This document shows, in pieces, positions 3,095-20,845 of a stretch of 24,000 bases of DNA. The translations under genes and the position numbers were made by a program. Under the pieces are notes generated by a model that made no database searches, was not told the origin of the DNA, and saw only the letters and a list, made by a program, of their open reading frames with translations. Each line of letters begins with the position of its first letter. Positions within the stretch are counted from its first letter, which is position 1. The DNA lies in contig CAYXGZ010000012.1 of the NCBI GenBank assembly GCA_964464755.1, positions 43,755 through 67,754 of the forward strand. Direction: 5' to 3'. The DNA comes from an uncultured Planctomycetales bacterium. Lineage in GTDB: Bacteria > Planctomycetota > MHYJ01 > JACPRB01.

Positions 3095-3105
3095 GTTGGA
3101 GTTTA

Positions 3106-3193: not shown

Positions 3194-3210
3194 ACGTTGG
3201 AGGAACGGGG

Positions 3211-3238
3211 ATTATAGTCCCGCCCGCCACGCGCGCAA
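3211..3238 (-). promoter_or_regulatory. Sigma70-like promoter for tRNA-Leu: TTGCGC-16 nt-TATAAT
   Basis: On the minus strand, TTGCGC is the complement of 3233-3238, followed by a 16-nt spacer and a perfect TATAAT (complement of 3211-3216). The -10 box ends 17 nt upstream of the mature tRNA 5' end. The element sits in the 48-nt gap just after the dxs stop codon (3242-3244). Confidence 0.55.
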
Positions 3239-3241
3239 GGC

Positions 3242-5218
3242 CTAGTAGAACACGCGGCCGGAATCGTCGCGCAGCGCGGGCCGCGGCCGGCCCGCCACCT
3301 GCATGCGCACCACGTCGGCGATCCCCTCGGCGTCCAGGTGCAGGAACTTCAGCAGCTCCGTCCGGCTCCCGTGCTGGATGAAGCGGTCCGGCACGCCGTG
3401 GATCTTCACCTTGCCCGCGTCATCGTTCCGCAGCGCGAGCGCCTCGACGACGGCCGAGCCGAAGCCGCCCGCCATCGCGTGGTCCTCGAGCGTGAGCACC
3501 CAGGGGTAGCGCCGCGCCAGGTCGGAGGCGAGCTCGGCGTCCAGCGGCTTCGCGAAGCGCGCGTTGGCCACCGCGACGTCGATCCCCTCCTTGAGCAGGA
3601 GGTCCCGCGCCTGCAGCGCCTTGACCGTCATCACGCCGTACGCGAGCAGGGCGCCGTCCCGGCCCTCGACGAGCAGCTCGCCGCGGCCGGGGGCCAGCGG
3701 CGTCGTCTTCAGCGGCCAGCGCGAGAGGTCCGGGACGTTCTCGCGCGGGATCCGGATGGCGCAGGGGCCCTTCAGCGCGACGGCGTAGGCGAGCATCTCC
3801 TTGAGCTCGGCCTCGTCCTTCGGCGCCATGAGCGTCATGTGGGGCAGGGTGCGGCAGAACGCGATGTCGAACATGCCGTGGTGCGTCGGCCCGTCCTCGC
3901 CGGCGATGCCGCCCCGGTCCAGGACGAGCGTGACCGGCAGGTTGTTGAGGCAGAGCTCCTGGTAGATCATGTCGTAGGCGCGCTGCACGAACGTCGAGTA
4001 GATCGCCGCCACGGGCCGCAGCCCCGCCTGGGCCGTGCCCGCGGCGAAGCTCAGCGCGGCCTGCTCGCTGATCCCGACGTCGAAGGTGCGCTCGGGGAAC
4101 TCGCGACCGAACTCGAGGATCCCCGTCCCGTCCGGCATCGCGGCGGTGATCCCGAGGATCCGCTCGTCCTTCCGGGCCATCGCGATCAGCGTGTCGGAGA
4201 AGGCCTTCGTGTACGACTTCGCGGGGACCGCGGCGGTCGCGGTCACGGGCTCGACCTTGCCGGCCGCGGGCGGCACCGCGTTCGCGCCCGTCGGCACCAC
4301 CGCGGGCTTGGCCTTCGGCTCGGCGGGCTTGTGGACGCCGAAGGGGTCCGTCGGCGCGTCGGGATGGCCCTTGCCCTTCTGGGTCACGACGTGCAGCAGC
4401 ACCGGGCCCTTCAGGGTCTTCACGTTGTGCAGGACCTCGACGAGCAGCTTGAGGTCGTGCCCGTCGATGGGGCCGTAGTACTGGAAGCCGAACGCCGTGA
4501 AGATGTTCGGGAGGATGGCCTGCTTGAGGCCGCGCCGGGCCGAGTCGACCATGTGCTCGACCGTCGTGCCCAGCGGGAGCTTCTCGAGGACCCTGTGCAG
4601 CTCCTTCTTCAGCTCCGTGTAGAGCGGCAGCGTGCGCATCTCGGTCAGCACGTTCTTCAGGGCGCCGACCGTCGGGGCGATGGAGAACCCGTTGTCGTTG
4701 AGCACGACGAGCATGTCGCGCTTCGAGTGGCCGATGTTGTTGAGCGCCTCGAAGGCCACGCCGGAGGTCATCGAGCCGTCGCCGATGTACGAGATCACCT
4801 TGCGGCGCCGGCCGAGCAGCGCGTCGGCGGTCGCGACGCCGTACGCGGTCGCGGGGCCCGTGCCGATGTGGCCGAAGTTGAAGGGGTCGAAGACGCTCTC
4901 GGGCTTCCAGCCGAAGCCGCACATCCCGCCGAACTGGCGCAGGGTCTGGAACTTCTCCCGGCGGCCGGTCAGCAGCTTGTGCGTGTAGCACTGGTAGCTG
5001 CCGTCCCAGACGATGAGGTCCTTGTGGAGCTCGAAGACGTAGTGCAGGGCGATCGTGAGGTCGACGATGCCGAGGTTGGAGCCGAGGTGGCCGCCGTTGC
5101 GGATCACGACGTCCATGATGAGGTGGCGGATCTCCGTCGCGAGCGCCGGCAGCTCCTCTTGGGTGAGGCGGTGGATGTCGTCGGCGTCCTTGATGCGGTC
5201 GAGCAGGGGATGGCTCAC
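3242..5218 (-). CDS. dxs: 1-deoxy-D-xylulose-5-phosphate synthase
   Basis: Track ORF of 658 aa: MSHPLLDRIKDADDIHRLTQEELPALATEIR...GGHLGSNLGIVDLTIALHYVF...IGDGSMTSGVAFEALNN. It shows a TPP-binding GDG motif and transketolase-like layout. GTG start at 5218 with AGGAG 7 nt upstream. It lies downstream of ispA, as in the classical xseB-ispA-dxs operon. Confidence 0.93.
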   Translation of the reverse strand: MSHPLLDRIKDADDIHRLTQEELPALATEIRHLIMDVVIRNGGHLGSNLGIVDLTIALHYVFELHKDLIVWDGSYQCYTHKLLTGRREKFQTLRQFGGMCGFGWKPESVFDPFNFGHIGTGPATAYGVATADALLGRRRKVISYIGDGSMTSGVAFEALNNIGHSKRDMLVVLNDNGFSIAPTVGALKNVLTEMRTLPLYTELKKELHRVLEKLPLGTTVEHMVDSARRGLKQAILPNIFTAFGFQYYGPIDGHDLKLLVEVLHNVKTLKGPVLLHVVTQKGKGHPDAPTDPFGVHKPAEPKAKPAVVPTGANAVPPAAGKVEPVTATAAVPAKSYTKAFSDTLIAMARKDERILGITAAMPDGTGILEFGREFPERTFDVGISEQAALSFAAGTAQAGLRPVAAIYSTFVQRAYDMIYQELCLNNLPVTLVLDRGGIAGEDGPTHHGMFDIAFCRTLPHMTLMAPKDEAELKEMLAYAVALKGPCAIRIPRENVPDLSRWPLKTTPLAPGRGELLVEGRDGALLAYGVMTVKALQARDLLLKEGIDVAVANARFAKPLDAELASDLARRYPWVLTLEDHAMAGGFGSAVVEALALRNDDAGKVKIHGVPDRFIQHGSRTELLKFLHLDAEGIADVVRMQVAGRPRPALRDDSGRVFY

Positions 5219-5228
5219 TCGGGCTCCT

Positions 5229-6119
5229 CTAGTGGGAACGTACCAGGATGAACTCCGCCAGCAGCACCAGGTCCAGCGCGTCCGGACCCAGCGGGGACAC
5301 GGACCGGACCGCCGAGCCGATCAACCGGCCGGCGTGGCGGCGGGAGGCCTCCAGGCCGTGCAGCGCGGGGTACGTCGCCTTGTCCTGCGCGGCGTCCTTG
5401 CCCGCCGTCTTCCCGAGCTGCTCGGTCGTGCCGGTGACGTCCAAAATATCATCGACGATCTGGAAGGCAAGGCCGAGGTCGCGGCCGTAGCGCCCGAGGC
5501 GCTCGACCGTCGCTTTCGCGGCGCCCCCGGCGATCGCGCCCATCCTCGCCGCGGCGACGAACATCGCGGCCGTCTTCGCGAGGTGGATGCGCTCCAGGTC
5601 CCGCGCCGAGGTCCGCCCGCTGCCGTCGAGGTCCAGCTGCTGACCGCCGACCATGCCCGTGCTGCCCGCGGCGAGGGCGAGCTCCCGGGCCTGGGCCGCC
5701 GCCGTGGGGCCCGCGTGCTTGGCCAGCGTCCCGAACGCGGCGGCCTGCAGCGCGTCGCCCGCGAGGATCGCCGTGGCCTCGTCGAAGGCCTTGTGGCAGG
5801 AGGGGCGGCCGCGCCGGAAGTCGTCGTCGTCCATGGCGGGCAGGTCGTCGTGGATCAGCGAGTACGTGTGGATCATCTCCAGCGCGCAGGCGGCCGGCAT
5901 CGCGGCGGCGGGCGCACCACCCACCGCGCGGCAGGCGGCGAGGGCGATGTACGGGCGCAGGCGCTTGCCCCCGCCGAAGAGGCTGTAGCGGATGGCCTCG
6001 TGGAGCCGGGAGGGCACGGTCTTCGCGGAGGGGATCCAGCGATCGAGGGCGCGGTCCACCCGGGTGCCGACCCGCGAGAGCTTCGCCTCGACGGAGTTGA
6101 CCGAGTACGTCCGGATCAA
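5229..6119 (-). CDS. ispA: Short-chain (E)-polyprenyl diphosphate synthase (farnesyl/geranylgeranyl diphosphate synthase)
   Basis: Track ORF of 296 aa carrying both aspartate-rich motifs: LIHDDLPAMDDDDFRRGRP (FARM with the bacterial 2-residue insertion) and FQIVDDILD (SARM). The TTG start at 6119 overlaps the xseB stop (TTGA). Confidence 0.9.
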   Translation of the reverse strand: MIRTYSVNSVEAKLSRVGTRVDRALDRWIPSAKTVPSRLHEAIRYSLFGGGKRLRPYIALAACRAVGGAPAAAMPAACALEMIHTYSLIHDDLPAMDDDDFRRGRPSCHKAFDEATAILAGDALQAAAFGTLAKHAGPTAAAQARELALAAGSTGMVGGQQLDLDGSGRTSARDLERIHLAKTAAMFVAAARMGAIAGGAAKATVERLGRYGRDLGLAFQIVDDILDVTGTTEQLGKTAGKDAAQDKATYPALHGLEASRRHAGRLIGSAVRSVSPLGPDALDLVLLAEFILVRSH

Positions 6120-6406
6120 AACGGCACGTCCCCCTTCTTGGGCCGCGGGGGCTTCGCCTCGGCGGGCGGGGCGTCGAGGTCGCGGGCGGAGAGCGAGCCG
6201 TCCTTCTCCTTCACGAGGAGCTGGATCTTCTTCTCCGCCTCCTCGAGGATGCGGTAGCAGGTCTTGAGCGCCGCGAGGCCGGCCTCGTACTTCTCCAGCG
6301 ACTCCTCGAGGCCGAGCTTGCCCGACTCGAGGTCGCGGACGACCTGCTCGGCGCGCGCGAGGTGGTCCTCGAAGCGCTCCTTCTTGGCGGGCTTTTCGCT
6401 GGTCAT
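6116..6406 (-). CDS. xseB: Exodeoxyribonuclease VII small subunit
   Basis: Track ORF of 96 aa: FEDHLARAEQVVRDLESGKLGLEESLEKYEAGLAALKTCYRILEEAEKKIQLL. This is the typical XseB helical hairpin signature, and the gene sits directly upstream of ispA-dxs. Confidence 0.88.
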   Translation of the reverse strand: MTSEKPAKKERFEDHLARAEQVVRDLESGKLGLEESLEKYEAGLAALKTCYRILEEAEKKIQLLVKEKDGSLSARDLDAPPAEAKPPRPKKGDVPF

Positions 6407-6418
6407 GGGGCCGCCATT

Positions 6419-7456
6419 CTAGGCCGGGCGCGGGGGCCGATCAACCGGCTTCCGGTTCCAGGGCAGGAGGGCGGTGAGTTTCGGGATCCCCCAGCAGAGC
6501 AGGGCGGTCGCGATCCAGAGGTAGACCGTGCAGCCCCAGAACAGCTCCCAGGACGCCCGCTCGTACCAGTGGGCCACGGGGGCGAACCGGGCGATGGGGA
6601 AGGCCAGCAGCAGGAGGTGGCCCGCGTAGGCGGTCATCGAGTTCTGGCCGTAAAGCTCCAGGAGCCAGATGACGGGATTCCGCTTCGTCAGCCAGGAGGG
6701 AGGCGCGAAGCGCTCCGCCGCGCAGAGCAGCACGCCGACGCTCCCGAACTTCACGAGCCGCTCGCCGGCGTTCTCCAGCTGCCAGTTGACGCCCGTCACC
6801 TTGAGCCAGGCCCCGAGGAGGGCCACGCCGGCCAGGGCCCAGGCGCAGGCGGGCAGGCCGCGGGTGGAGATCGCGCCGGCGGCCGCGCCGAGCAGCACGT
6901 ACCCGGCCCAGGGCAGGACGCCGAATTCCCAGGACGCGGGCGGATTGACGAAGTGGCTCCAGACCGGGTGGGTGACGCCCGAGCACCAGGTCGAGGCCTG
7001 CAGGCAGAACAGCCCGAGGACCGTCGCCACGACCACGTAGACGCGGGGCCGGTCCGCGAGGAACTGGAGCAGGACCCACACGACCAGGAGGCTGAGCGCG
7101 ATGCAGGAGAGGACGTCGCTGGCCAGCCACCAGCCCTTCTCGTTCCAGTGGAAGTAGGCCGTCAGCGCCTTGCCGACGAGGAGCACCTCGGCGATCCGGC
7201 GCAGCGACTTGATCGACCGCGCCCGCGCGGCGGCCGGGTCCTTCGCCGCCCTCGCCATGACGAGCGTCAGCGCGAAGCCCGCCGCGAAGAGGAAGGAGGG
7301 CGCGACCAGTCCGTTGATGCCGTTCAGGAAGTCGCGCAGCGGGGTCCCGTGGAACTCCTTCGACAGGAGGATCAAGGCGTGCACCTCGATCATCACGAAC
7401 ACCGCGAGCCCGCGCAGCCAGTCGATCGCGCGGATGCGCTCCGAGGGGGCGCTCAT
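6419..7456 (-). CDS. Polytopic membrane protein, DUF1624 / heparan-alpha-glucosaminide N-acetyltransferase-like acyltransferase family
   Basis: This is the C-terminal 345 codons of track ORF 6419..8602. I place the start at ATG 7456-7454 (MSAPSERIRAIDWLRGLAVFVMIEVHALILL), where the R..IDWLRG motif is typical of the family. About 10 hydrophobic segments follow. The ATG overlaps the xseA stop (ATGA). The track residues upstream are out-of-frame overlap with xseA. Confidence 0.7.
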   Translation of the reverse strand: MSAPSERIRAIDWLRGLAVFVMIEVHALILLSKEFHGTPLRDFLNGINGLVAPSFLFAAGFALTLVMARAAKDPAAARARSIKSLRRIAEVLLVGKALTAYFHWNEKGWWLASDVLSCIALSLLVVWVLLQFLADRPRVYVVVATVLGLFCLQASTWCSGVTHPVWSHFVNPPASWEFGVLPWAGYVLLGAAAGAISTRGLPACAWALAGVALLGAWLKVTGVNWQLENAGERLVKFGSVGVLLCAAERFAPPSWLTKRNPVIWLLELYGQNSMTAYAGHLLLLAFPIARFAPVAHWYERASWELFWGCTVYLWIATALLCWGIPKLTALLPWNRKPVDRPPRPA

Positions 7457-8808
7457 GCCTCGTGGCCCTCGACGCGGCTGCGGAGGCGGCCCTTCGCGAG
7501 GCGGGTGACGATCCGGTCGCCGGGTCTCACGGACGACGCGTCGCGGACGACGGTGCCGGACTCGTCCTGCGTGATCGAGTAGCCCCGGCCCAGGACCGCG
7601 AGCGGGCTGACGGCGTCGAGGTGGCCGGCGACGGACGCGCCCCGCTCCCGGGCCAGGCGGAGGCGGTGCTGGATCTCGGTGGACAGCCGGCGCTGGAGCG
7701 CGTCGAGCTCGCCGCGCCGGCGCGTGATCAATTCGCGGGGCGTCGGCACGCGGATCCCCTTGAGGCGCTCGCGGTGGGATTTCACGAGCGAGAGCAGGGC
7801 GGTCCCGAGGCGGTCGTCGAGGTCGTCGAGGCGCTGCCGGTGCTGGGCGACGAGCGCGGCGGGCTGCGCGAGGGCGGCGCTGTGGAGCCAGCGGTCGAGG
7901 GTGGAGCGCGCCAGCTCGGCCCGGGCCGCGAGGGCGCGGCGGAGCTGGCCCTTCATCTCGTCGAGGCGGGCGGCGAGTTCCACGGCCCGGGGCGCGACCC
8001 GCGTCGCGGCGTCCGTGGGCGTCAAGGCCCGCACGTCGGCCGCGAAGTCGGCGATCGTGGTGTCCGTCTCGTGCCCGACGGCGCTGATCGTGAGGATGCG
8101 GCTCGCGGCGAGCGCGCGGGCGACGACCTCCTCGTTGAAGGCCCAGAGGTCCTCGATGGAGCCGCCGCCGCGTCCGACGATCATCACGTCGATCTCGGGC
8201 CGCCGGGCGTTGAGGTCCCGGATGGCCGCGGCGATCTCGTCGGCCGCTCCCTCGCCCTGCACGCGGACGGGGTACACGTAGACCTCGAGCGACGGGCAGC
8301 GCGAGCGGATCGTCCTCAGCATGTCCTGCAGCGCGGCGCCGGAGGGCGACGTCACGATCGCGACCGAGGCCGGCAGCAGCGGGAGCGGCCGCTTGCGGGC
8401 GGGATCGAAGAGGCCCTCCGAGCGGAGCTTCTCCTTGAGCTGCTCGAAGCGCACCTGCAGGGCGCCCGCACCGAGGGGCTCGAGGGAGTCGACGATGAGC
8501 TGGTAGTTGCCGCGGGGGAGGTAGACGTCGATCTTCCCGCTCGCGAGCACCTGCATGCCGTTCTCGGGGCGGAACTTCAGGCGAGAGGCGGATCCGCGCC
8601 ACATCGCGCAGTTCAGGACGGCGCCCGCGTCCTTGAGCGAGAAGTACAGGTGCCCGGAATCGGTGGGCGGACGATAGTTGGAGATCTCGCCCTGCACCAG
8701 GACCGTGGGGAACTCGTCGGCGAGCGCGGACTTGATGCGGGTCGTGAGTTGGGTGACGGTCTCGGGCCGCCGGACGTCGAAGAGGGGGAGGTCGGCGGGC
8801 AGGCCCAT
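7453..8808 (-). CDS. xseA: Exodeoxyribonuclease VII large subunit
   Basis: Track ORF of 451 aa: VTQLTTRIKSALADEFPTVLVQGEISNYRPPTDSGHLYFSLKD (N-terminal OB fold), then IVTSPSGAALQDMLRTI...IVGRGGGSIEDLWAFNEE (catalytic core) and a C-terminal coiled coil. The size is typical of XseA. Confidence 0.92.
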   Translation of the reverse strand: MGLPADLPLFDVRRPETVTQLTTRIKSALADEFPTVLVQGEISNYRPPTDSGHLYFSLKDAGAVLNCAMWRGSASRLKFRPENGMQVLASGKIDVYLPRGNYQLIVDSLEPLGAGALQVRFEQLKEKLRSEGLFDPARKRPLPLLPASVAIVTSPSGAALQDMLRTIRSRCPSLEVYVYPVRVQGEGAADEIAAAIRDLNARRPEIDVMIVGRGGGSIEDLWAFNEEVVARALAASRILTISAVGHETDTTIADFAADVRALTPTDAATRVAPRAVELAARLDEMKGQLRRALAARAELARSTLDRWLHSAALAQPAALVAQHRQRLDDLDDRLGTALLSLVKSHRERLKGIRVPTPRELITRRRGELDALQRRLSTEIQHRLRLARERGASVAGHLDAVSPLAVLGRGYSITQDESGTVVRDASSVRPGDRIVTRLAKGRLRSRVEGHEA

Positions 8809-11211: not shown

Positions 11212-11238
11212 CCCGTATCCAATGGGTTCCGATACGGG
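11212..11238 (-). promoter_or_regulatory. Stem-loop in the rny leader that overlaps the Shine-Dalgarno sequence
   Basis: The minus strand reads CCCGTATC-GGAACCCATTG-GATACGGG-AGAGTCGC-ATG. This is an 8-bp perfect stem with an 11-nt loop. The last GGG of the 3' arm is the start of the only SD-like element (GGGAGAG) ahead of the rny ATG at 11203. Confidence 0.35.
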
Positions 11239-11516
11239 CGCCGGACGGTGCAGGGAAGGCGGCGGCCGGGGTTCCCCCCGGATCGGCCTGCCTCCGCGGA
11301 CGACGCTGGACTCGACTACGGGAATCCCGCGCCGGAGAACGGCGCGGGCTTAAGCTCGGATTTAGGAGCGTCGGGTCGCACCGGACGAACGCCCATCTAT
11401 AGTTAATCCGCCGCGGTTCGGAACATTCTGCGGCGGAGGACTGCGCAAAAAGTACGCGATTCCCGGGTTCGAGTCAAGCCGAACCGGCGGCCCGGACGCA
11501 TTCCTGCACCATTTGC

Positions 11517-11545
11517 TTGACCCCCCCCGTCCCATGGGATAAGGT
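11517..11545 (+). promoter_or_regulatory. Candidate promoter of the FHA/pilMNO-like cluster: TTGACC-17 nt-TAAGGT, with a C8 tract spanning the -35 end and spacer
   Basis: TTGACC at 11517-11522, a 17-nt spacer, then TAAGGT at 11540-11545, which keeps T1, A2 and T6 of TATAAT. It lies 117 nt upstream of ATG 11662. The homopolymer CCCCCCCC is at 11521-11528. Assigned by hexamer inspection only. Confidence 0.3.
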
Positions 11546-11661
11546 TCGTCGGTTCATGGAGCGGGATCGGCAGACACGGCGGGGGGATGGTGTCTACCGT
11601 GACCGGATCGTCGTCGGCCTCGAGTCCCGCCCGATTCCAATCCCCGTTTCGCCCCTCTTCC

Positions 11662-13788
11662 ATGCCTAAACTGATCGTGCAGTTCCAGGGCCAGGAGTGG
11701 ACGGTCGAGCTCCGGGAGGGCTCCAACATCGTCGGCCGCTCCGCGAAGGCCGAGGTCCCCGTCCGCGACCCCAGCATGTCCCGCGAGCACGCCGAGGTGC
11801 GCCGCGAGGGCGACACCTGCACGATCGTCGACAAGGGGAGCATGAACGGCACGCTCCTCAACGGCACCAAGGTCGCCGAGCAGAAGCTCGTTCCCGGCGA
11901 CAAGCTCCAGATCGGCAACGCGGTCTTCTGGTTCGAGGAGAAGAAGGGCGACGCCGCTCCGCCCCCCGCGGTCCCCATGGCGACGCCGGACCCCGGCGCC
12001 CCGACCCGCATCCCCGCGCCCGCCGTCGAGGTGCCCAGGGCCCAGCCCTCGCCCTCCACCAAGCGCTCCGAGCCCAAGGCCTCGGCCCTCGTGAAGGACT
12101 TCGCCCAGTTCGGCAAGGACGGGGGCGGCCTCAACCCGGCGGTCCTCGCCGCCATCGTGGTCGTCGTCCTCGGCACCGCCGGCTGGTTCGGCTTCCGCGC
12201 CCTCTCCAAGGGTCCGGAGGGCGACGTCGACAAGGACAACCTCGTCGGCTACAACGGGTCCTTCGAGCTCGCCTCCGACAAGGGCGTGATCGGCTGGACG
12301 CTCCGCACGCCCGGCGCCTCGAAGCTCTCCACGATCGACAACGTCGCCAAGGACGGCGCCCGCTCGATGGGCCTCGAGAAGGCCGGCGGGCCCAGCGACC
12401 TCGTCGTCGAGATCGCCTCGAACGACGCCTTCGAGCTCCAGAAGAGCTCCCAGGTCGAGATCGGCGCGTGGGTCAAGGCCGAGTCGTACACCGGCCTCGT
12501 CGCCCTCCGCATCACCTGGCTGAGCAAGGTCGGCGGCGCGGTCATCCTCGAGGAGATCTCCGAGCCCTCGCCGCGCGGCGCGGAGTGGCAGTCCGTGCAG
12601 AAAACCTTCGCCGCGCCCGCGGGCGCCGGGGCCTTCGTCCCGGGCTTCCTCGCGGTCGGCCGCGGCGGCCGGATCTACATCGACGACGTGAAGGTGAAGC
12701 GGCGCGAGGGGGCCCCCTCGGACCGCTCCCTCGACCTCGGCAGCTTCCAGGTCTCGGCGGCCTCGACGGGCTCGTTCAACGTCCAGCAAGGGGGAAAGCG
12801 CGTGCTCTCGGGCGCGCAGGTCTGCCTCTGGAGCGAGAAGGACGGGGCGCTCTCGCAGGCCGTCGCGGCCGAATCGCGCTGCGACGTGGACGCCGCGAAG
12901 AAGACGCTCACGGCCGGCGGCAAGCTCTTCAGCCCCGTGGACCTCCGCACGGTCGACTTCGAGCAGGAGGTCAAGGGCTCGACCTCGCTGCTCGTCGGCT
13001 ACACGGTGAAGGGCGACATCCTCAAGCAGGTCGACCGCGTCGGGCTCCAGGTCTTCGTGCCGCGCGGCGAGATCGTCGGCGACGTGTCTCGGCCCGTCTC
13101 GAGGGCGACCCTGCGCGGCGAGGCGGGCGACTTCACCGTCGAGGTGGTGTCCGGCCAGCTCGCGACGGTGAGCGTCGAGTCGCTGCCCGGCGGCCGCCGC
13201 ATCCTCTTCGGGATCCCGGTCGAGCGCGGAGCCTCCGAGGTCGTGGCCGCGTTCGAGGTGAAGGCGGGCGTCTCGACCTCCGCCGACCCGAAGGTGAACG
13301 CGCAGAAGTCCGAGCAGGAGGGCCGGATGGCCGACGCGCGCCAGTGGTGGCGCCAGCTCGTCGACACGACCAAGGAACCCGAGAAGCAGGAGCAGTTCCG
13401 GCTCGAAACGCGTCGCCTCGACCAGCTCGAGACCACCGAGTGGAACGGCGTGCTCTCGGCGGGCTTCCGGGCCGGGCTGATGCGGCACCGGGCCCTCTTC
13501 GAGAAGGCGCTGCAGCTGCTCGATTCGCACGAGAAGCGCTGGCCCGGCGGACGCTACGCCGCGGCCGCGAAGTCGGAGCGGGAGCGCCTGTCGCAGGCCG
13601 TCGGCGGCGCCGCGGCCGACCGCGACTCCGAGCGCGCCCGCCGGCTCCTCCAGGAGGCGCGCGACTGCCTCGACACGGGGCGCAAGACCCTGGCCCGCGA
13701 GATCCTCCGGACGATCCGCGAGGTCTACCCGGCGTCCGACGCCGCGGGGCCCGCGGCGGAACTCCTCAAGCAGGTCAAGGCGGACTAA
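11662..13788 (+). CDS. FHA-domain / single-pass TM / CBM4_9-like beta-sandwich / C-terminal helical-repeat protein (708 aa)
   Basis: Track ORF 11587..13788. I prefer the start at ATG 11662 (MPKLIVQFQGQEWTVELREGSNIVGRS...SMSREHAEV...GSMNGTLLNG, the canonical FHA GR/SxxH/NG motifs). The 25 upstream codons have poor GC3, so 11587 remains possible. A Pro-rich linker follows, then a TM helix at 12130-12204. At 12235-12705 the sequence reads NLVGYNGSFE..GVIGWT...SQVEIGAWVKAES...WQSVQKTFAAP...GRIYIDDVKVKR, the pattern of CBM4_9-type jelly rolls. The C-terminus is helical and TPR-like. Confidence 0.8.
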   Translation: MPKLIVQFQGQEWTVELREGSNIVGRSAKAEVPVRDPSMSREHAEVRREGDTCTIVDKGSMNGTLLNGTKVAEQKLVPGDKLQIGNAVFWFEEKKGDAAPPPAVPMATPDPGAPTRIPAPAVEVPRAQPSPSTKRSEPKASALVKDFAQFGKDGGGLNPAVLAAIVVVVLGTAGWFGFRALSKGPEGDVDKDNLVGYNGSFELASDKGVIGWTLRTPGASKLSTIDNVAKDGARSMGLEKAGGPSDLVVEIASNDAFELQKSSQVEIGAWVKAESYTGLVALRITWLSKVGGAVILEEISEPSPRGAEWQSVQKTFAAPAGAGAFVPGFLAVGRGGRIYIDDVKVKRREGAPSDRSLDLGSFQVSAASTGSFNVQQGGKRVLSGAQVCLWSEKDGALSQAVAAESRCDVDAAKKTLTAGGKLFSPVDLRTVDFEQEVKGSTSLLVGYTVKGDILKQVDRVGLQVFVPRGEIVGDVSRPVSRATLRGEAGDFTVEVVSGQLATVSVESLPGGRRILFGIPVERGASEVVAAFEVKAGVSTSADPKVNAQKSEQEGRMADARQWWRQLVDTTKEPEKQEQFRLETRRLDQLETTEWNGVLSAGFRAGLMRHRALFEKALQLLDSHEKRWPGGRYAAAAKSERERLSQAVGGAAADRDSERARRLLQEARDCLDTGRKTLAREILRTIREVYPASDAAGPAAELLKQVKAD

Positions 13789-15593
13789 TGGGCTACGGGA
13801 TCGACATCGGCGCGGCCAACCTGAAGATCGTCCAGGTGCGCCGGACCCTCAACGGGTTCCGGATCGTCGGCGCGTCCCGCAAGCGGCTGCCCCGGGTCGA
13901 GAAGCCCGAGGAGACCAAGCAGAACGCGATCCGCGGCGTCCGCGAGGCGCTCGGGCTCCGCGAGGGCCAGGTCGCCGTCGTCGGCCTCAGCGGCCGCGAC
14001 ATCAACCTGAAGACCGTCCAGCAGGCCCAGATGAAGCCGATCCAGTACCGGACGATGATGGGCTACGAGGTGGACCAGGCGCGCGGCTCGGACAACCAGC
14101 TCTACGGCGACTTCTGCACGCTGCGCGAGCCCGACCCGTACTACCCGAACTACCTCGCGATGGTCGGCCTCGCGAAGGTCGCCTACGTGGACGACCGCCT
14201 CGCCATCGCGCAGTCCGCGGGCCTCGACGTCCGCGACGCCGTCCCCACGCCCTTCGCCATCTACACCGCGTACCACAACGCGTACGGCGACGAGAACGGG
14301 ACCGTGATGCTCCTCGACATCGGCGCCGAGACGACGGACCTCGTGCTCGTCCGCGGCGGCCGCCTCATCTTCTGCCGCAACGTCTCGACCGGCGCCCGCG
14401 TCTTCGACCAGAACATCTCCTCGATGGCGGGCCTGTCGTCCGACGACGCGGAGGCCCGGAAGATCCAGTACGGGACGCTCGGCGCGCCCGCGGAGGGCGC
14501 CGATCCGCGCGAGGAGGAGATCCGTCCCGCGATCCGGACCTCGGCGGGCCAGCTCGCCGGCGTCATCACGTCGAGCATCACGTTCGCCAAGGGGCAGCTC
14601 AACGACCGCGAGCTGACCGTGGACAAGATCTACGTGTCCGGCGGCGGCGCCCGCCTCAAGGGCCTGCCCGAGTACCTCCAGAGCTCGACGAAGATCGCCG
14701 TGGAGGTCCTCGACCCGTTCAAGAACTGCGAGTGGGGCTCCATCGGCGACAACCCGGACGCCAAGCAGCTGCCCAGCGACCTCGTGGCGGCGCTCGGCCT
14801 CGCGCAGATCTCGACGCAGTCCCGGGGCGGCTCGATCCTCTCGATCATCCCGGACCGCCTGAAGGTCCGCCGGAACTTCTTCCGCAGCGCGGTCTTCCTG
14901 ATCGCCGCGGGGGTCGTGCTGGCCGTGGGCGTCGCGGCGGCGACCGGCGTCGCCATCATGCGGCGCTCGGCGGCGGCGGCGGAGCTGGCGAAGTTCCAGG
15001 AGGAGACGAAGGCCGTCAGCGACCGGATCACGCAGCTCGACAAGCTCGAGGAGGAGCTGCGGGTCCTGATCGCCAAGCGGCGGCTGCTCGACAGCCACGT
15101 CGCGCCGGGCCGGGGCCTGCTGGAGACCGTGCTCAAGCTGCGCAAGACGCTTCCGGACGGGATCCACGTCCGGACGGTCGAGCTGGTCAACCTCGCGGAG
15201 GATCGCGCGGCGACGCCGGGCGGACCGCGGCGGCTCGTCTTCAGCTACCCGAACCGGGGCATCCTCGAGGGGACGGTGCCCCGGGGGAAGACAGAGTCGC
15301 CGAACGACCCCGACGTGCGCGTGCACCTGAGCGACGCGGCGGGCCACTCGGAGCCCGAGGTCTTCAGCAAGGGCGCGATGATCGGCGCGATCCCGGTGGA
15401 CGCGCCCTGGCTGGGCGTCCTGGTCAAGGGCGAGATCGACGACAACATCAAGGGCGGGCCGGGGACCGTGCTCGACGACCTGCGCCTGAACTTCACCGAT
15501 CCCCTGCGCGGCGTGTCCGCGGAGATCTTCCAGGAGGGCCCGGGCAACCGGCCCGGCTGGCAGACCTTCCGCATGGTGCTGCGGGGGGAATGA
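13788..15593 (+). CDS. PilM-PilN fusion protein (GspL-like architecture): actin-like ATPase-fold domain, linker, TM helix, coiled coil, periplasmic domain (601 aa)
   Basis: This is the C-terminal part of track ORF 11697..15593. The start ATG at 13788 overlaps the preceding TAA (TAATG). The N-terminus MGYGIDIGAANLKIVQVRR...VVGLSGRDINLK...LLDIGAETTDLVLV...IYVSGGGARLKGLPEYL is PilM-like. It is followed by ILSIIPDRLKVRRNFF (like the PilN INLLP...RR peptide) and a TM helix at 14877-14960. Then comes a coiled coil (AELAKFQEETKAVSDRITQLDKLEEELRVL) and about 190 further residues. Confidence 0.8.
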   Translation: MGYGIDIGAANLKIVQVRRTLNGFRIVGASRKRLPRVEKPEETKQNAIRGVREALGLREGQVAVVGLSGRDINLKTVQQAQMKPIQYRTMMGYEVDQARGSDNQLYGDFCTLREPDPYYPNYLAMVGLAKVAYVDDRLAIAQSAGLDVRDAVPTPFAIYTAYHNAYGDENGTVMLLDIGAETTDLVLVRGGRLIFCRNVSTGARVFDQNISSMAGLSSDDAEARKIQYGTLGAPAEGADPREEEIRPAIRTSAGQLAGVITSSITFAKGQLNDRELTVDKIYVSGGGARLKGLPEYLQSSTKIAVEVLDPFKNCEWGSIGDNPDAKQLPSDLVAALGLAQISTQSRGGSILSIIPDRLKVRRNFFRSAVFLIAAGVVLAVGVAAATGVAIMRRSAAAAELAKFQEETKAVSDRITQLDKLEEELRVLIAKRRLLDSHVAPGRGLLETVLKLRKTLPDGIHVRTVELVNLAEDRAATPGGPRRLVFSYPNRGILEGTVPRGKTESPNDPDVRVHLSDAAGHSEPEVFSKGAMIGAIPVDAPWLGVLVKGEIDDNIKGGPGTVLDDLRLNFTDPLRGVSAEIFQEGPGNRPGWQTFRMVLRGE

Positions 15594-15599: not shown

Positions 15600-16394
15600 A
15601 TGGACTACTGGTGGAAGGAGAACCGGAAGTTCGCCCTCGCGGTCGGCGGGGGCGTGCTCGGGCTCGCCGCCTGGGCGCTGTTCGTCGTCGGGCCGATCAA
15701 CGCGTCGGCCGACAAGGCGCGCCAGGACCTGACGAACCAGCGCCTCATGCTCCAGGGCCGGCTCGCCGCGGGCGTCCCCGCCGAGGACTCCGTGGGCCGG
15801 GCCGAGCGCGACCGCAAGGCGCTGACCGAGGACCTCAAGAGCCTGCAGGCGGCCGCGGAGTTCAAGCTCGAGGAGGCGTTCAAGGGCTCCGACGGCTCGA
15901 AGACGCCGCAGGAGCTGCTGGGCCGCGCGCGCGGCGACTTGGTCAAGCTGCTGGACCTGAAGTGCAAGGAGCGCGGCTTCCCCCAGATCGCCCAGAACCT
16001 CGGGATGCCCTCGAGCGTGCAGACCCTGCCGGACCCGGTGGCCACGGAGTGGCTGAAGCGGCTCGCCATCCTGAAGCGGGTCTGCCTGCTGGCCATCGAG
16101 CACGCGGAGAAGCTGGAACTCGTCGAGGTCGTCCCCAACCCGAACCAGGACGAGTCGCTGATCCAGGACGCCCGCTTCATGAACAAGCTGACGTTGAAGT
16201 TCCGCGTGCAGGCGCCGGCCGAGGGCACGCTGCGGCTGGTGCACGCGCTGCAGCAGAAGGGGACCTTCCTCGCCGTCGAGGCCTTCTCGACCGGCCTGGC
16301 CGACGCGGGGCGCGACCTGATGTCGACGGAACTGTCCGTGTGCGGGATCTTCGCGAACCTGTCCGGGGGCGTGATGCCCGAGCACAAGGAGTGA
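15600..16394 (+). CDS. PilO/GspM-like bitopic inner-membrane assembly protein (264 aa); assignment by architecture and position
   Basis: Track ORF, with SD GAGGAG 3 nt upstream (15591-15596) overlapping the previous TGA stop (15591-15593). It has an N-terminal TM helix (FALAVGGGVLGLAAWALFVVG), then a coiled coil (ADKARQDLTNQRLMLQ...KALTEDLKSLQAAAEFKLEE) and a C-terminal alpha/beta region. It sits immediately after the PilMN fusion. Confidence 0.6.
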   Translation: MDYWWKENRKFALAVGGGVLGLAAWALFVVGPINASADKARQDLTNQRLMLQGRLAAGVPAEDSVGRAERDRKALTEDLKSLQAAAEFKLEEAFKGSDGSKTPQELLGRARGDLVKLLDLKCKERGFPQIAQNLGMPSSVQTLPDPVATEWLKRLAILKRVCLLAIEHAEKLELVEVVPNPNQDESLIQDARFMNKLTLKFRVQAPAEGTLRLVHALQQKGTFLAVEAFSTGLADAGRDLMSTELSVCGIFANLSGGVMPEHKE

Positions 16395-16398: not shown

Positions 16399-19224
16399 GT
16401 GGGCCCGCTGAAGAACTTCAACAAGGAACAGGTCACGCTCGGCGCGGCGGCCCTGCTCGCCGCGCTTGTCTTCGGCTGGCAGTCCGCCCGCGGCGGGTCC
16501 GGGACCGCGGGCGCGGGCGGGGCGGGCGGCGACCGGACCTACGGCACGCCGCGGCTCCAGGTGCCCGAGTTCGTGCAGCCCAAGGTCGACCACTACCTCC
16601 AGGGCCGCAACATCTGGGAGCCGCCGATCACCGGCCGGCTGCCCATCCCCGAGATCCGCCATCCCGAGCCGCGGCTGGACGGCCCCGTGCTGCCCCCGCT
16701 GCGGCCCTCGCCGAACTTCGAGATCTTCAACCGCGCGCTGCTTCCGGGGAAGGACCGCGTGCTGCCGCGGGCGCTGGGGGTCTCGACCCCTCCGGGCCTG
16801 CTGCCCGCGGCCGAGCTCGAGGCGCTCAAGGCCCTCAAGGAGCCCGAGGCGGTCGGCGTGCCGGACCGCCGCAAGCAGCTCATGCGGCCGACGGGCGAGG
16901 CGATCGTCCACCTGAAGCCGCCCGCCAAGCCGATCGAGGGGCGGGTGCTCCTCGAGAAGCCCGACGGCACGATCATGATCGAGATCGTCAAGGGAGACTC
17001 GAAGCAGCGTCGGGAGATCAAGCCCGACGACATCGACCGCGCCCACCCCGGCACCGAGGACGGCGTCGAGCGCGGCTGGGAGTACGAGAAGGACTACGAC
17101 CGGCGCTCGCGCCGGCTCAAGGACACGGACGTCGACGGGCACGTGAAGCTCGGCCGCTGGTGCCGCGAGCAGTCCGGCATGCTGCCGGAGGCCGCGCGGT
17201 CGTTCCGCACGGCCCTGGAGACCCTGCGCCGGAAGAACGACGTGTCGCAGAAGTCGCGCGAGATCCTCTTCCAGCTCGCGGACACGCACCGCGACCTGGG
17301 GGATATCGACGGCGCCGTTGCCGTCGTCTCGGAGTTCCTCGACTCCGTCCGCGGCGGCACCCAGGAGACGGGCGACCTCCACCTGAAGCTCGGGGATCTC
17401 TTCCGCGCGATCGGCCACTTCGAGCGCGCGGGCCAGAGCTACCTCGCCGCGGCGCTCCTCGAGCCCGCGCGCCAGGCCGGCCGGACGATGCTCGCCCGCG
17501 TGCAGTACGAGGCCGGGCGCGACGTCGACGCCCTCGACACGCTGGACCAGATGGCCAAGGCGCTCGGCAAGCTCGAGGACGAGGCCCTGCTCGTCCAGGC
17601 GCTCTGCCAGCTCCGCCAGGGCAACGCGGCGGCGGCCCAGGCCTCGCTCGCGGGCGTGCTGGCCGCCAGGCCGGACCACTCCGAGGCCCTGAACGCCGCG
17701 GGCGTCGCCCACGCGCTCCTCGGCCAGCCCGAGGGGCCGGCGAGGTTCGCGGCGGCCATCAAGGCGAACCAGTACGAGATCGACGCGTGGCTGAACCTCG
17801 CGGTGCTCTACCTGGCGGCGGGCGCCGCCCCCGAGGCCGAGGCGCTGTACCAGGCGGCCGCGCAGCGCGATCCGGACTCCCCGACGGCGCTCGCGGGCCT
17901 CGGGCTCGTGCAGGCGCTGAAGACCCAGGGCAAGGACACGGGCGGCCACCTGGACCGCGCGCTGGCCGTGCGCCCCGGGCACTACTACTCGAAGTACGCC
18001 CTCGGGCACCTCGCTCTCCAGGCGGGTCGCGCGCAGGAGGCCCTCGACCGCTTCACGGAGAGCTTCCGGGACGAGTCGTCCTACCTCCCGGCCTACTACG
18101 ACGCGTCGCTGGCCTACCTGGCCCTCGCCCGCGAGGAGCAGCGCGCCGGCCAGTACGGGCCGGCCGAGCAGCGGGCCGGGCGGATGGAGCGCGCCGCCTC
18201 GCTGCGCGTGAACGCCGAGACGCTGCTCGGGTCGATGCGCGAGCTGGACCCGACCCGGGCGGAGACCTACATCGCGCTCGGCTGCGTCTACGCCTCCCAG
18301 GGCCGCCCCTCGGAGGCCCTCGCCGCGTTGAACCAGGGCGCGACCGGCGCCCAGCCCGATCCGCTCGTCGAGTACGCCCGGGGCTTCGTCGACTACTGGT
18401 ACTCGGGCGAGAACCGCAAGCAGGGGATCGAGCTCGCCGAGGGCCGCTTCCGCGGCGGCTCCCTGATGCAGCCAGTCACCGAGTCCGACAAGGACTGGAT
18501 CGCCGCGTGCGTCGACGCGCTGAAGAAGGTCGACGATTGGAAGACGAAGCGCGTGCTCTTCGAGGACCGCTTCGACAACAACCAGTGGTCCCCGACGGCG
18601 GCCTGGCTCCGCGTCGAGGCGCCCAACGGCCCCCAGATGAAGGCCGAGGGCGGCCGCTGGGCCGTCAGCGGCGTCCAGGGTTCGGGCCGCAGCTCCCGCC
18701 TCACCGGGCTGGAGCGCCGCGACATCGCCGGCGTGGAGTTCCTGAGCGTCGAGGCCGTGCTCACGTGGGAGTCGCTGGCGGGCCAGGAGATCGGCTGCTC
18801 GGTGTTCGTCTCGAAGCCGGCGGGTTCCGGCGCCACGGAGCAGGCCCAGGGCGTCCACCTCGTCGTGACCGAGGACCGCGTCAAGGGGCTGCGGCTCGGC
18901 TTCGGCTACGGCATGGCCGTCCGCGAGCGGGGCCCGGACCAGCTCGGCGCGTTCACGATGGCCCTGGCCGCCGGGACCAAGTCCCTGCGCTTCAAGATCG
19001 AGCGGCGCGAGGCCGAGGCGCGCACGTGGGTCTTCGAGCTCTTCCTCTGGGACGAGGCGAAGCAGGACTGGAAGCTCGCGATCGAGAAGGCGCCCCCGAA
19101 GGTGCCTCACTCGGGGGATAATGTCCCGTACATCCTGTCGCTGTGGGGCCGGTCGGCCGTCGAGTCCCAGAAGGTCGGGTTCGGGATCGACGACGTCCGC
19201 GTCCTCATCACGACCCGGCGCTAG
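16399..19224 (+). CDS. 941-aa TM / Pro-rich / small beta-domain / TPR-repeat / C-terminal ConA-LamG-like beta-sandwich protein occupying the PilP/GspC slot
   Basis: Track ORF with GTG start and AAGGAG (16387-16392) 6 nt upstream. TM helix VTLGAAALLAALVFGW is followed by a Pro-rich stretch. The segment at 16894-17033 (GEAIVHLKPPAKPIEGRVLLEKPDGTIMIEIVKGDSKQRREIKPDDI) resembles PilP/GspC beta domains. At about 17100-18400 there are many Ala/Leu-rich 34-residue-like repeats (LGDLFRAIGHFERAGQSYLAAALLEP...). At about 18530-19221 the sequence reads FEDRFDNNQW...WAVSG...FLSVEAVLTWES...KVGFGIDDVRVL, which is jelly-roll-like. Confidence 0.75.
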   Translation: MGPLKNFNKEQVTLGAAALLAALVFGWQSARGGSGTAGAGGAGGDRTYGTPRLQVPEFVQPKVDHYLQGRNIWEPPITGRLPIPEIRHPEPRLDGPVLPPLRPSPNFEIFNRALLPGKDRVLPRALGVSTPPGLLPAAELEALKALKEPEAVGVPDRRKQLMRPTGEAIVHLKPPAKPIEGRVLLEKPDGTIMIEIVKGDSKQRREIKPDDIDRAHPGTEDGVERGWEYEKDYDRRSRRLKDTDVDGHVKLGRWCREQSGMLPEAARSFRTALETLRRKNDVSQKSREILFQLADTHRDLGDIDGAVAVVSEFLDSVRGGTQETGDLHLKLGDLFRAIGHFERAGQSYLAAALLEPARQAGRTMLARVQYEAGRDVDALDTLDQMAKALGKLEDEALLVQALCQLRQGNAAAAQASLAGVLAARPDHSEALNAAGVAHALLGQPEGPARFAAAIKANQYEIDAWLNLAVLYLAAGAAPEAEALYQAAAQRDPDSPTALAGLGLVQALKTQGKDTGGHLDRALAVRPGHYYSKYALGHLALQAGRAQEALDRFTESFRDESSYLPAYYDASLAYLALAREEQRAGQYGPAEQRAGRMERAASLRVNAETLLGSMRELDPTRAETYIALGCVYASQGRPSEALAALNQGATGAQPDPLVEYARGFVDYWYSGENRKQGIELAEGRFRGGSLMQPVTESDKDWIAACVDALKKVDDWKTKRVLFEDRFDNNQWSPTAAWLRVEAPNGPQMKAEGGRWAVSGVQGSGRSSRLTGLERRDIAGVEFLSVEAVLTWESLAGQEIGCSVFVSKPAGSGATEQAQGVHLVVTEDRVKGLRLGFGYGMAVRERGPDQLGAFTMALAAGTKSLRFKIERREAEARTWVFELFLWDEAKQDWKLAIEKAPPKVPHSGDNVPYILSLWGRSAVESQKVGFGIDDVRVLITTRR

Positions 19225-19233: not shown

Positions 19234-19857
19234 ATGCGGCGCTCCCCGGGGTTCACGCTGATCGAGATCCTCGTCGTCATCGTCATCATCGGGATCCTCG
19301 CCTCGCTCGCGCTCGTCGGCGTCAACGCGGCCCTCAACAGCGCCAAGGTCAGCGCCACCGAGTCCATGCTCCGCACGCTCGAGGGGGCCTGCCACCAGTA
19401 CCGCACGCGCTGGGGCGACTACCCGCCCTCCACGCTCACCGAGTTCAACGTGCAGCTCTCCAACGAGGTCAACAACGGCGCCGAGTCGCTCTGCGCCTGC
19501 CTCGGCTCCACGCTGAAGGGCGGGTCGCTGCTCTCGTCGGTGAAGGATGACCAGTTCGTCAACATGGACCGCGACGCGGCCCCGCGCAACGTGACGACCT
19601 GGTTCTTCGGAGACACGCAGCTCCGGGAGGTCGCCGACGCCTATGCGCAGCCGATGACCTACCTCCACTGGAAGGACTACCGCCGCGCCCCGGTCCAGGT
19701 CCGGAAGTACTGGATGGCGGACGGGGGGCCGGAGCAGGTCGTGCAGGTGGAGGTCAGCGCCGCCACGAAGGCCTTCCAGCGCCAGGACTCCTTCCAGATG
19801 AGGTCCGCGGGCAAGGACGGGAAGCTCGGGACCCCCGACGACATCCAACTGCCGTAG
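19234..19857 (+). CDS. GspG-family major pseudopilin / type IV pilin-like protein with prepilin N-methylation signal (207 aa)
   Basis: Track ORF with SD GGGAGG 4 nt upstream. MRRSPG|FTLIEILVVIVIIGILASLAL shows G-1, F+1 and E+5. ...AKVSATESMLRTLEGACHQYRTRWGDYP resembles the GspG helix, and the C-terminal SAGKDGKLGTPDDI resembles the GspG SAGPDG..GT.DDI calcium-loop motif. Confidence 0.85.
   Translation: MRRSPGFTLIEILVVIVIIGILASLALVGVNAALNSAKVSATESMLRTLEGACHQYRTRWGDYPPSTLTEFNVQLSNEVNNGAESLCACLGSTLKGGSLLSSVKDDQFVNMDRDAAPRNVTTWFFGDTQLREVADAYAQPMTYLHWKDYRRAPVQVRKYWMADGGPEQVVQVEVSAATKAFQRQDSFQMRSAGKDGKLGTPDDIQLP
19253..19287 (+). repeat. Copy 1 of a 35-nt perfect direct repeat (pseudopilin signal-sequence region)
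   Basis: TCACGCTGATCGAGATCCTCGTCGTCATCGTCATC is identical, including all synonymous positions, to 19899-19933. Confidence 0.9.
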
Positions 19858-19867: not shown

Positions 19868-20845
19868 ATGGGCCGCGCCAGGCGCGCCGACGCGGGCGTC
19901 ACGCTGATCGAGATCCTCGTCGTCATCGTCATCTTCTCGATGCTGATGGGGCTGGGGGTCTCGGTCCTCCGCAACGCGAACAAGGACCTCGGCGTCCGGG
20001 CCGCGGCGGGCCGCGTCGTCGCGATGATCCGCGCCGCCCACGACCACGCCCGCGCCGAGAACAGCCCGGCCTGGGTGATCTTCACGATGCAGGAGCCCTC
20101 CGCGGGCGCCCTCACCAAGGAGACGGTGGGGATGTGGCACTGCGAGGAGGACGGCCGCGGCGCCTTCGGCCTCGACCCCAAGGTGACCGGCGCGGTCATC
20201 CAGCCCGGCCGCATCGGGATGGGCTACCGGATGCGCAAGCCCGGCGACTCCGTGGAGCTCGGCGAGATCCCGTTCCAGGCGAAGGACCAGGGCGTCGCGC
20301 TCGAGCTCTGGTTCTGGCGGGACGCCGGCGGCCAGAAGTCCACGATCGCCGCGGCGGGGAAGGACCTCGAGCTCCTCCTCGACGCCACCGGCCGCGTCAC
20401 GGCGCGGATCGGCGGGCTCAACCTCGGTTCCGGCGACGCGCTGCTGCCCCGCGAGAGCTGGATCCACGTCCAGCTCCTGCACAACGGGCGCCAGGCCAAG
20501 CTCTTCCTCAACGACGTGGAAGTCGCCTCCGTGAACGGCGGGGTGCAGTGGTCGGACAAGCCCGCGCCGATCCTCGTCGGCGGCGGGCGCGACGGCCTGG
20601 TGGGCATGGTCGACGAGATCCGCCTCAGCCTCATCGTCCGGCGGGACATCTACCGCCTGCCGGCCCAGGTCGAGTTCCAGTTCGCGCCCGGCACGGTCCC
20701 CGTCAACGACGAGGTGATCCTGGCCTTCGACTCGCTGGGGCGCCTGGACCCGGCCCGCCACCCCGGGCCGTTCTCCTTCAAGGTCAAGTCGCCCGCGGAC
20801 GAGAAGGAGATCGTCGTGACCCCCCAGGGGGCGGTCCGGCGCTGA
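19868..20845 (+). CDS. Minor pseudopilin (GspH-like N-terminus) fused to a LamG / Laminin_G_3-type jelly-roll domain (325 aa)
   Basis: Track ORF. MGRARRADAG|VTLIEILVVIVIFSMLMGLGV carries a prepilin signal with E+5 but V instead of F at +1. At about 20243-20629 the sequence reads VALELWFWRD...ESWIHVQLLHNGRQAKLFLNDVEVAS...LVGGGRDGLVGMVDEIRLS, the signature I associate with Laminin_G_3 domains. Confidence 0.8.
   Translation: MGRARRADAGVTLIEILVVIVIFSMLMGLGVSVLRNANKDLGVRAAAGRVVAMIRAAHDHARAENSPAWVIFTMQEPSAGALTKETVGMWHCEEDGRGAFGLDPKVTGAVIQPGRIGMGYRMRKPGDSVELGEIPFQAKDQGVALELWFWRDAGGQKSTIAAAGKDLELLLDATGRVTARIGGLNLGSGDALLPRESWIHVQLLHNGRQAKLFLNDVEVASVNGGVQWSDKPAPILVGGGRDGLVGMVDEIRLSLIVRRDIYRLPAQVEFQFAPGTVPVNDEVILAFDSLGRLDPARHPGPFSFKVKSPADEKEIVVTPQGAVRR
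19899..19933 (+). repeat. Copy 2 of the 35-nt perfect direct repeat
   Basis: Identical to 19253-19287. It encodes TLIEILVVIVI in both pseudopilin genes. Confidence 0.9.

Follow-up and report, generated by a model that had tools for sequence, protein, structure and literature searches.

The first gene of a pseudopilus-type operon in an uncultured Planctomycetales bacterium encodes a protein, P0001, that is predicted to hold an FHA domain inside the cell and two carbohydrate-associated folds beyond the membrane. The gene lies in a stretch of 24,000 nucleotides (hereafter the window) from contig CAYXGZ010000012.1 of assembly GCA_964464755.1. We propose, with a probability of roughly 0.55, that P0001 is a bitopic, phospho-gated accessory subunit in the inner membrane, belonging to a divergent pseudopilus machine of the T2SS (type II secretion system)/type IV filament class. 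The proposal draws on the conservation of its FHA domain, on its predicted membrane topology, and on its position ahead of a PilM-PilN platform gene across related loci.

Domain architecture of P0001

The frame that begins at 11662 on the plus strand is stop-free over 708 codons in the translation of the window. Because the start methionine of 'MPKLIVQ' is invariant across 31 aligned sequences (P0001 and 30 others, each of ~700 amino acids), we place the start there and not at an upstream ATG at 11587. An AlphaFold2 (AF2) model of the protein, built on the 31-sequence alignment, has a mean predicted local distance difference test score (pLDDT) of 83.6, and a separate model of residues 350-708 reaches 86.9. 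The gene and the parts of its product are as follows.

11662-13788, + strand: whole gene of P0001, with FHA, transmembrane, CBM_4_9-like, beta-supersandwich and TPR-like parts (708 amino acids)
11662-11943, + strand: FHA domain (residues 1-94), predicted to be cytoplasmic, its phosphothreonine-binding pocket intact (Pfam, alignment, AF2, Foldseek)
11944-12132, + strand: Pro/Ala-rich disordered linker, residues 95-157, ~60 amino acids (pLDDT <50)
12133-12207, + strand: single transmembrane helix, residues ~158-182 (hydropathy and AF2)
12229-12705, + strand: predicted periplasmic jelly roll, residues 190-348, running from the 'NGSFE..GW' to the 'IDDV' motif (Pfam, profile, Foldseek)
12724-13266, + strand: predicted periplasmic beta-supersandwich of galactose-mutarotase-like or YidC-P1-like fold, residues ~355-535 (AF2, Foldseek)
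13288-13785, + strand: C-terminal helical, TPR-like domain, residues ~543-708 (AF2, weak profile matches, Foldseek)

A sequence-only reading of the window had arrived at the same order of parts: an FHA domain, a Pro-rich linker, one transmembrane helix, a CBM4_9-like jelly roll, a second beta-rich region and a helical end. AF2, Pfam and Foldseek bear this out, the second beta-rich region appearing in the AF2 and Foldseek results as a beta-supersandwich and the helical end as a TPR-like domain.

Judged by its sequence and model, the N-terminal domain looks like a working phosphothreonine reader. Pfam FHA (PF00498) matches residues 23-85 at E 3.9e-15 and 56.5 bits, where the cut-off is 20.7, and the match is present in all 31 family members. 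The FHA motifs of P0001, GR at residues 25-26, SREH at 40-43 and NGT at 62-64, align with the same motifs in Mycobacterium tuberculosis FhaA, and residues G25, R26, S40, R41, H43, N62, G63 and T64 are invariant across the 31 sequences, which share 31-58% identity with P0001. The canonical FHA domain claimed in the sequence-only reading is thus borne out, its motif residues aligning to the FHA profile. When the family profile was searched against the PDB, the FHA domain of M. tuberculosis FhaA was matched at E 1.5e-16. The AF2 model has a pLDDT of ~90 over the domain and shows the eleven-stranded beta-sandwich of the FHA fold; in Foldseek it superposes with solved phosphothreonine-binding FHA domains at a TMt of 0.8-0.95, a root-mean-square deviation of 1.1-2.2 Å and 30-35% identity, with FhaA, GarA, OdhI and Bdellovibrio DgcB as the best matches.

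The linker that follows is poorly conserved apart from a juxtamembrane pair, D146-[YF]147 (nucleotides 12097-12102; D146-F147 in P0001), both positions of which are kept in all 31 sequences. Situated ~12 residues ahead of the transmembrane helix, the pair could be a docking element.

A Kyte-Doolittle scan of P0001 gave one segment at or above 1.8, at residues 154-181, and the AF2 helix spans residues 159-182. The single helix predicted earlier therefore stands, with its position shifted from 12130-12204 to about 12133-12207. P0001 has no signal peptide, and its transmembrane helix is preceded by a K/R-rich flank of net positive charge and followed by an acidic one; the predicted orientation is therefore N-in/C-out. 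Sequence and model together fit a bitopic protein, with the FHA domain inside the cell and the C-terminal modules, the CBM-like part among them, beyond the membrane, as had been supposed.

The first of these modules is the jelly roll. Distant relatives of full architecture exceed the Pfam CBM_4_9 (PF02018) cut-off of 25.9 bits in the equivalent region (P0089, 32.5 bits; P0097, 27.4 bits; P0126, 26.3 bits). From 1.84 billion representatives, a search with a profile built on the periplasmic part recovers proteins with strong CBM_4_9 domains at E ≤1e-20. In one of the proteins so matched, P0110, the profile covers residues 486-630 and Pfam CBM_4_9 covers 488-616; another, P0100, combines CBM_4_9, CBM_X2 and SLH. 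Foldseek matched the jelly roll to CBM16 2zey (E 3e-6, TMt 0.68), CBM22 4xun and CBM4 3k4z, and further to the Fbs1 sugar-binding domain and a porphyran carbohydrate-binding module (CBM). Because a direct but sub-threshold Pfam match in P0001, relatives above the cut-off, the profile search and Foldseek agree, we consider the predicted homology to CBM_4_9 well supported, in line with the CBM4_9-like assignment made earlier; that the jelly roll binds glycan, we infer. The family profile also matched a phage 'central fiber protein (gp20)' (PDB 8zdo, chain v) at E 8.7e-6; this sequence match, over residues 259-351, covers the jelly roll's second half and suggests a CBM-type module common to the P0001 family and the phage fibre.

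The supersandwich was matched by Foldseek to 1k1x, 5wzn, 8r73, 3bs6 and 1txk (E 3e-5 to 6e-3, ~10% identity). The first three are galactose-mutarotase-like domains from glycoside hydrolase, phosphorylase and polysaccharide lyase enzymes, and the domain also resembles OpgG and the P1 domain that YidC has in the periplasm (3bs6). For the helical end the matches are weak: YbgF/CpoB 2xev at E 0.0095 in the PDB profile search, NCBIfam tol_pal_ybgF at E 0.0078, and BamD in Foldseek.

Gene order at the P0001 locus

The genes dxs, ispA, xseA, ymdB and rny upstream of the FHA gene lie on the minus strand, so the FHA gene opens a co-directional block. This agrees with its earlier description as the first gene of the filament cluster. 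The block and its boundary are listed below.

11223-11661, no strand: intergenic stretch from which rny (- strand) and the FHA gene diverge; the cluster's promoter is presumed to lie here
13786-13790, + strand: TAATG, in which the stop of the FHA gene overlaps the start of the PilM-PilN gene
13788-15593, + strand: PilM-PilN fusion (PilMN), GspL-like (Pfam PilM_2, E 3.6e-26; transmembrane residues 360-389)
15600-16394, + strand: PilO/GspM-like bitopic protein (N-terminal transmembrane segment; syntenic; no match in Pfam or NCBIfam)
16399-19224, + strand: TPR protein of 941 amino acids (Pfam TPR families; syntenic in relatives)
19234-19857, + strand: GspG-like pseudopilin
19868-20845, + strand: LamG-bearing GspH-like pseudopilin
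from 20865, + strand: giant GspK-like pseudopilin gene, continuing beyond the window end (24000)

The TAATG overlap suggests, at the level of sequence, translational coupling of the FHA gene to the PilM-PilN gene. On the contig beyond the window there are two more pseudopilin genes, making five in total, and then ksgA, dnaG and rpoD.

The order FHA, PilM-PilN, PilO-like, TPR (~915 amino acids), GspG-like and LamG pseudopilin is kept in 12 of 12 close relatives whose loci had enough flank (L001, L003, L024-L026, L028-L033 and L036), and in seven of the eight divergent loci retrieved (L017, L018, L020-L023 and L105, from other GTDB families). In the eighth, L019 (genome G016), the gene with FHA domain, transmembrane helix and jelly roll is present, and no PilMN match was found within the 12 kb examined. 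PilMN thus follows the FHA gene in 19 of 20 related loci. The sequence-only reading had staked its case on conservation beside pilMNO-like genes, which is what we see with L019 as the exception.

The genes that flank the block vary by lineage: close relatives have rny and ymdB there, whereas L020 and L105 have an FHA-GAF-sigma54 activator. The FHA-PilMN block thus travels as a unit. Distant PilM-fusion paralogues in genomes G021 and G012 have no FHA neighbour, and the FHA linkage is therefore specific to this orthologous group.

No secretin was found in the 20 related loci or on the whole 75-kb contig. A T2SSE ATPase lies near the cluster in one of the 20 loci, and another lies 55 kb off on the contig analysed here; genome-wide there are 23 T2SSE matches and six secretins.

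Members and distribution of the family

The search returned ~33 full-length homologues, every one from uncultured Planctomycetota and annotated at most as 'FHA domain-containing protein'; there was no cultured carrier among the homologues of single-FHA or twin-FHA form. Proteins with the periplasmic tri-module make up many 50%-identity clusters and fall into two size classes, of ~680-750 and ~790-1000 amino acids, the larger of which has two or three tandem FHA domains. The number of FHA domains over the shared tri-module therefore varies from one to three (L018:5463-8039, L020:4974-7667, L105:9757-12231, P0105 and P0157). Tandem FHA domains are otherwise known from EssC of the type VII secretion system and from Chlamydia CdsD.

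Distribution was assessed with the periplasmic profile (E ≤1e-12) in a sample of 301 Planctomycetota genomes from 238 genera. It matched 64 genomes, a count that is rough both ways, as genome G022 scored none yet has a twin-FHA gene beside PilMN, and a few matches are unrelated large CBM proteins. By genus the matches amount to 56 of 238, and within the same class to 12 of 14 genomes, while several well-sampled families had none (0/15, 0/15, 0/10 and 0/7 genomes). Four loci labelled Verrucomicrobiota or 'bacterium' (L055, L056, L060 and L062) were rejected despite their long matches, their multi-FHA proteins having neither the periplasmic module nor a PilMN neighbour.

A phospho-gated model and its alternatives

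In the model that we favour, the FHA domain would dock on a phosphothreonine made by a Hanks-type kinase encoded in trans, and the long disordered linker would let the domain search near the membrane. Docking would recruit or license the assembly platform or a trans-encoded ATPase, in the manner of Fha in the type VI secretion system (T6SS) and as proposed for the Kil apparatus. The periplasmic modules may anchor the platform to glycan, either peptidoglycan or captured polysaccharide, or may contact the TPR protein; through these contacts the state of the envelope or of the cargo would be linked to assembly. For its motor, platform protein, secretin and peptidase, the machine would depend on genes elsewhere in the genome.

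Partners for such signalling were sought in the genome (G000; 3.67 Mb, 88% complete), which holds ~97 Hanks-type Pkinase matches, 15 FHA domains and five SpoIIE-type phosphatase domains. The sequence-only reading had suggested looking for Hanks-type kinases and PP2C phosphatases: the kinases are plentiful, but classical PP2C (PF13672, PF00481) has no match in this 88%-complete genome, leaving just the five SpoIIE-type domains.

Several observations weigh against the phospho-gated model. A Hanks kinase lies within ~5 kb of the cluster in one of 20 loci and is thus not conserved in cis, and no phosphatase was found near the cluster in the 20 loci or on the 75-kb contig; in T6SS, by contrast, kinase and phosphatase are encoded in the cluster (ppkA/pppA/fha). 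No phosphorylated partner of the FHA domain was found in the linker (31 sequences) or in PilMN (19 orthologues). PilMN was rejected as phospho-acceptor because none of its threonines is conserved in 80% or more of the 19 orthologues, where only Ser262, Ser284 and Ser352 are; T115, in a T-R-R motif of the linker, was rejected as self-ligand because a threonine stands there in only 18 of the 31 sequences (58%). The check for conserved phosphothreonine sites that had been suggested for the cluster proteins therefore came out negative for PilMN and the linker. On the glycan side, the Pfam CBM_4_9 match of P0001 itself reaches 18.2 bits (E 0.0033), below the cut-off, and at E ≤0.01 the family is matched in just three of 31 close homologues. 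The invariant residues of the jelly roll may be structural only, and the supersandwich fold is found in non-glycan proteins too, for example in YidC P1. The coupling of kinase signalling, or of glycan sensing, to filament assembly, as first put forward from the sequence, accordingly stays at the level of a proposal: kinases are abundant, none is conserved beside the cluster and no phospho-acceptor was identified.

The same lack of a conserved cis-encoded kinase or phosphatase, and of a conserved phospho-acceptor, speaks for a purely structural inner-membrane scaffold, in which the FHA domain would be a phosphorylation-independent module as in YscD and PrgH and the periplasmic domains would oligomerise round the platform. 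Pfam Yop-YscD_cpl (PF16697) does match P0001 above its cut-off (52.3 bits against 33.2; E 6.9e-14), and P0001 shares with SctD of the type III secretion system (T3SS; YscD, PrgH, EscD and CdsD) a cytoplasmic FHA-type fold, one transmembrane helix and a large periplasmic part. We nevertheless find a scaffold rather unlikely, since the phosphothreonine-contacting residues of the family are all invariant, which would be unexpected had phosphopeptide binding been lost; YscD, unlike P0001, is not known to keep all of them. SctD, moreover, has ring-building motifs of alpha-beta-beta-alpha-beta type where P0001 has its jelly roll, supersandwich and TPR-like end. In neither Foldseek search do the 50 listed matches include ring-building domains or SctD chains, and the family profile did not find YscD or PrgH chains at E up to 1. 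SctD also sits in a T3SS cluster, whereas the neighbours of P0001 are PilM-like, TPR and pseudopilin genes. Because it has neither the ring-building motifs nor the T3SS context, we do not count P0001 as a member of SctD. The YscD/PrgH class, cited as a precedent in the sequence-only reading, is thus a fitting one for the topology and not for the periplasmic part.

P0001 might instead stand outside the machine as an outside-in glycan sensor, its ectodomains detecting polysaccharide, either periplasmic or imported, and its FHA domain sequestering or recruiting phosphorylated regulators, such as FHA-sigma54 activators or kinases, and so controlling expression of the operon. Two carbohydrate-associated folds beyond the membrane and the LamG modules on other cluster proteins would suit this role. 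A gene for an FHA-GAF-sigma54 enhancer-binding protein adjoins the operon in two distant relatives (L020:3152-5131, + strand, in G026; L105:13190-15121, + strand, in G022), where the arrangement hints at a second, transcriptional layer of phosphothreonine-dependent control. The genome analysed here has 20 sigma-54 activator matches, several of which are truncated where a contig stops; FHA-sigma54 fusions number at least four (contigs C22, C1, C27 and C36). In the window, however, no FHA-GAF-sigma54 gene adjoins the operon, and a sigma-54 promoter upstream was rejected: the intergenic region 11223-11661 holds no -24/-12 match with up to two mismatches, and the window-wide count is below chance. 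The FHA domain, furthermore, is without a catalytic output, and the gene is coupled to the platform gene and in most loci stays with the platform and not with a regulator. We regard a role as sensor alone as unlikely.

It is highly improbable, in our view, that P0001 acts like FhaA as a regulator of the cell envelope or of peptidoglycan synthesis and simply lies beside filament genes. FhaA (Rv0020c) does give the best FHA matches, and the operon of close relatives sits amid housekeeping genes (rny and ymdB upstream; ksgA, dnaG and rpoD downstream); but the gene stays with PilMN even in families whose flanking genes differ, the stop codon overlaps the PilMN start, and P0001 has nothing in common with FhaA outside the FHA domain.

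Comparison with known systems

Like P0001, Fha of T6SS (Fha1/TagH) is a canonical phosphothreonine-binding FHA protein encoded in the cluster of a trans-envelope machine, and it has been proposed to gate assembly. Fha1 is, however, soluble and has neither a transmembrane helix nor a CBM-like periplasmic part, both of which P0001 has. The machines also differ, T6SS being a contractile sheath and that of P0001 being assigned to the pseudopilus class; the window contains no T6SS genes.

The genes downstream of P0001 resemble GspL, GspM and GspG/H/K of the canonical T2SS, although all NCBIfam Gsp matches are below cut-off. The canonical system has no FHA protein, and in the P0001 operon a 941-residue TPR protein takes the place of GspC; the cluster lacks GspD, E, F and O.

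GltG of the Myxococcus gliding motor is, like P0001, an FHA-containing protein of an envelope machine, though of a different one. It is the third-ranked NCBIfam match of P0001 (NF033760; 42.3 bits against a cut-off of 650), the match being confined to the FHA domain and part of the linker. The periplasmic part of GltG is TonB-like and not made of CBM, supersandwich and TPR modules.

Within the type IV filament superfamily, the Kil Tad-like apparatus of Myxococcus xanthus includes, besides several FHA proteins, an ATPase fused to an FHA domain (PMC8460266), and class III CpaF ATPases carry an N-terminal FHA domain (PMC12019362). As in P0001, FHA domains are there tied to a machine of this superfamily, and signalling control of assembly is suspected. 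In Kil and CpaF, however, the domain is found on the motor ATPase or other Tad-type proteins, whereas P0001 carries it on a bitopic protein with ectodomains of glycan-binding type; the P0001 operon, in addition, has a PilM-PilN (GspL-like) platform of T2SS/type IVa pilus type and no ATPase in the cluster. Given Kil (PMC8460266), FHA-CpaF (PMC12019362) and the weak GltG match, the sequence-only statement that no equivalent is known in T2SS and type IV pilus (T4P) operons is too strong for the superfamily at large. Literature searches on FHA with PilM, T4P or Planctomycetes gave no description of a P0001-type protein or operon.

The MUL2 locus of Akkermansia muciniphila (Amuc_1099-1102) shares with the P0001 operon an origin in the Planctomycetes-Verrucomicrobia-Chlamydiae (PVC) group, a pilus-like gene content and a link to glycans that is known or suspected. 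MUL2 is a pilus-like locus implicated in glycan attachment, and none of its four listed genes is described as encoding an FHA protein (PMC13174399). PilMN scores 131 bits against the NCBIfam Amuc_1101 family, far from the cut-off of 650, and we therefore take MUL2 for a remote relative of the P0001 operon rather than its orthologue. In Planctomycetes, pili-like fibres have been found to bind dextran (PMC5394234). An extended form of the phospho-gated model would make P0001 the checkpoint of a glycan-harvesting pseudopilus, with the ectodomains reporting polysaccharide caught by the LamG pseudopilins and the FHA domain licensing the platform in a phospho-dependent way. In that case the operon would correspond, in planctomycetes, to MUL2 and would be a candidate for the fibre-mediated capture and uptake of polysaccharide observed in this group (PMC5394234). 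We consider this extension very unlikely.

Additional observations at this and related loci

At locus L003, an IS605 OrfB/TnpB-type (Cas12f-like) gene lies directly after the second pseudopilin gene (L003:19748-20827), and the locus has no match to the third, giant pseudopilin of the window. A second FHA gene of the genome, near a canonical pilMNO on contig C8, was rejected as linked, being convergent and placed after a FliN-like gene. There (L104, G000:C8:52000-68000, positions 2439-8807), an FHA protein of 477 amino acids is encoded behind a FliN-C-like protein and convergent to a separate pilM (363 amino acids); two small open reading frames downstream of this pilM occupy the positions of pilN and pilO and have no Pfam match. 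In the window itself, a long open reading frame on the minus strand (6419-8602), between xseA and ispA, has an HGSNAT_cat acyltransferase domain (heparan-alpha-glucosaminide N-acetyltransferase-like). It overlaps the xseA frame in the list of open reading frames, and its start position is uncertain.

Implications for Planctomycetota

Control of envelope machines through FHA domains is known for T6SS, for T3SS, where the domain serves as a scaffold, and for Tad-like systems; for a platform of the GspL/PilM type it has not been described. In P0001, a predicted phosphothreonine reader and ectodomains of glycan-binding type are joined in one membrane protein that is fixed at the head of its operon, and about one in five, or more, of the Planctomycetota genera sampled carry the operon. 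If the phospho-gated model is true, P0001 would provide a testable link from the very many Ser/Thr kinases of Planctomycetota to a machine at the cell surface, together with a defined starting point in the search for the kinase and its substrate. P0001 would then be, in addition, a candidate component of the poorly understood capture of polysaccharide by PVC bacteria.

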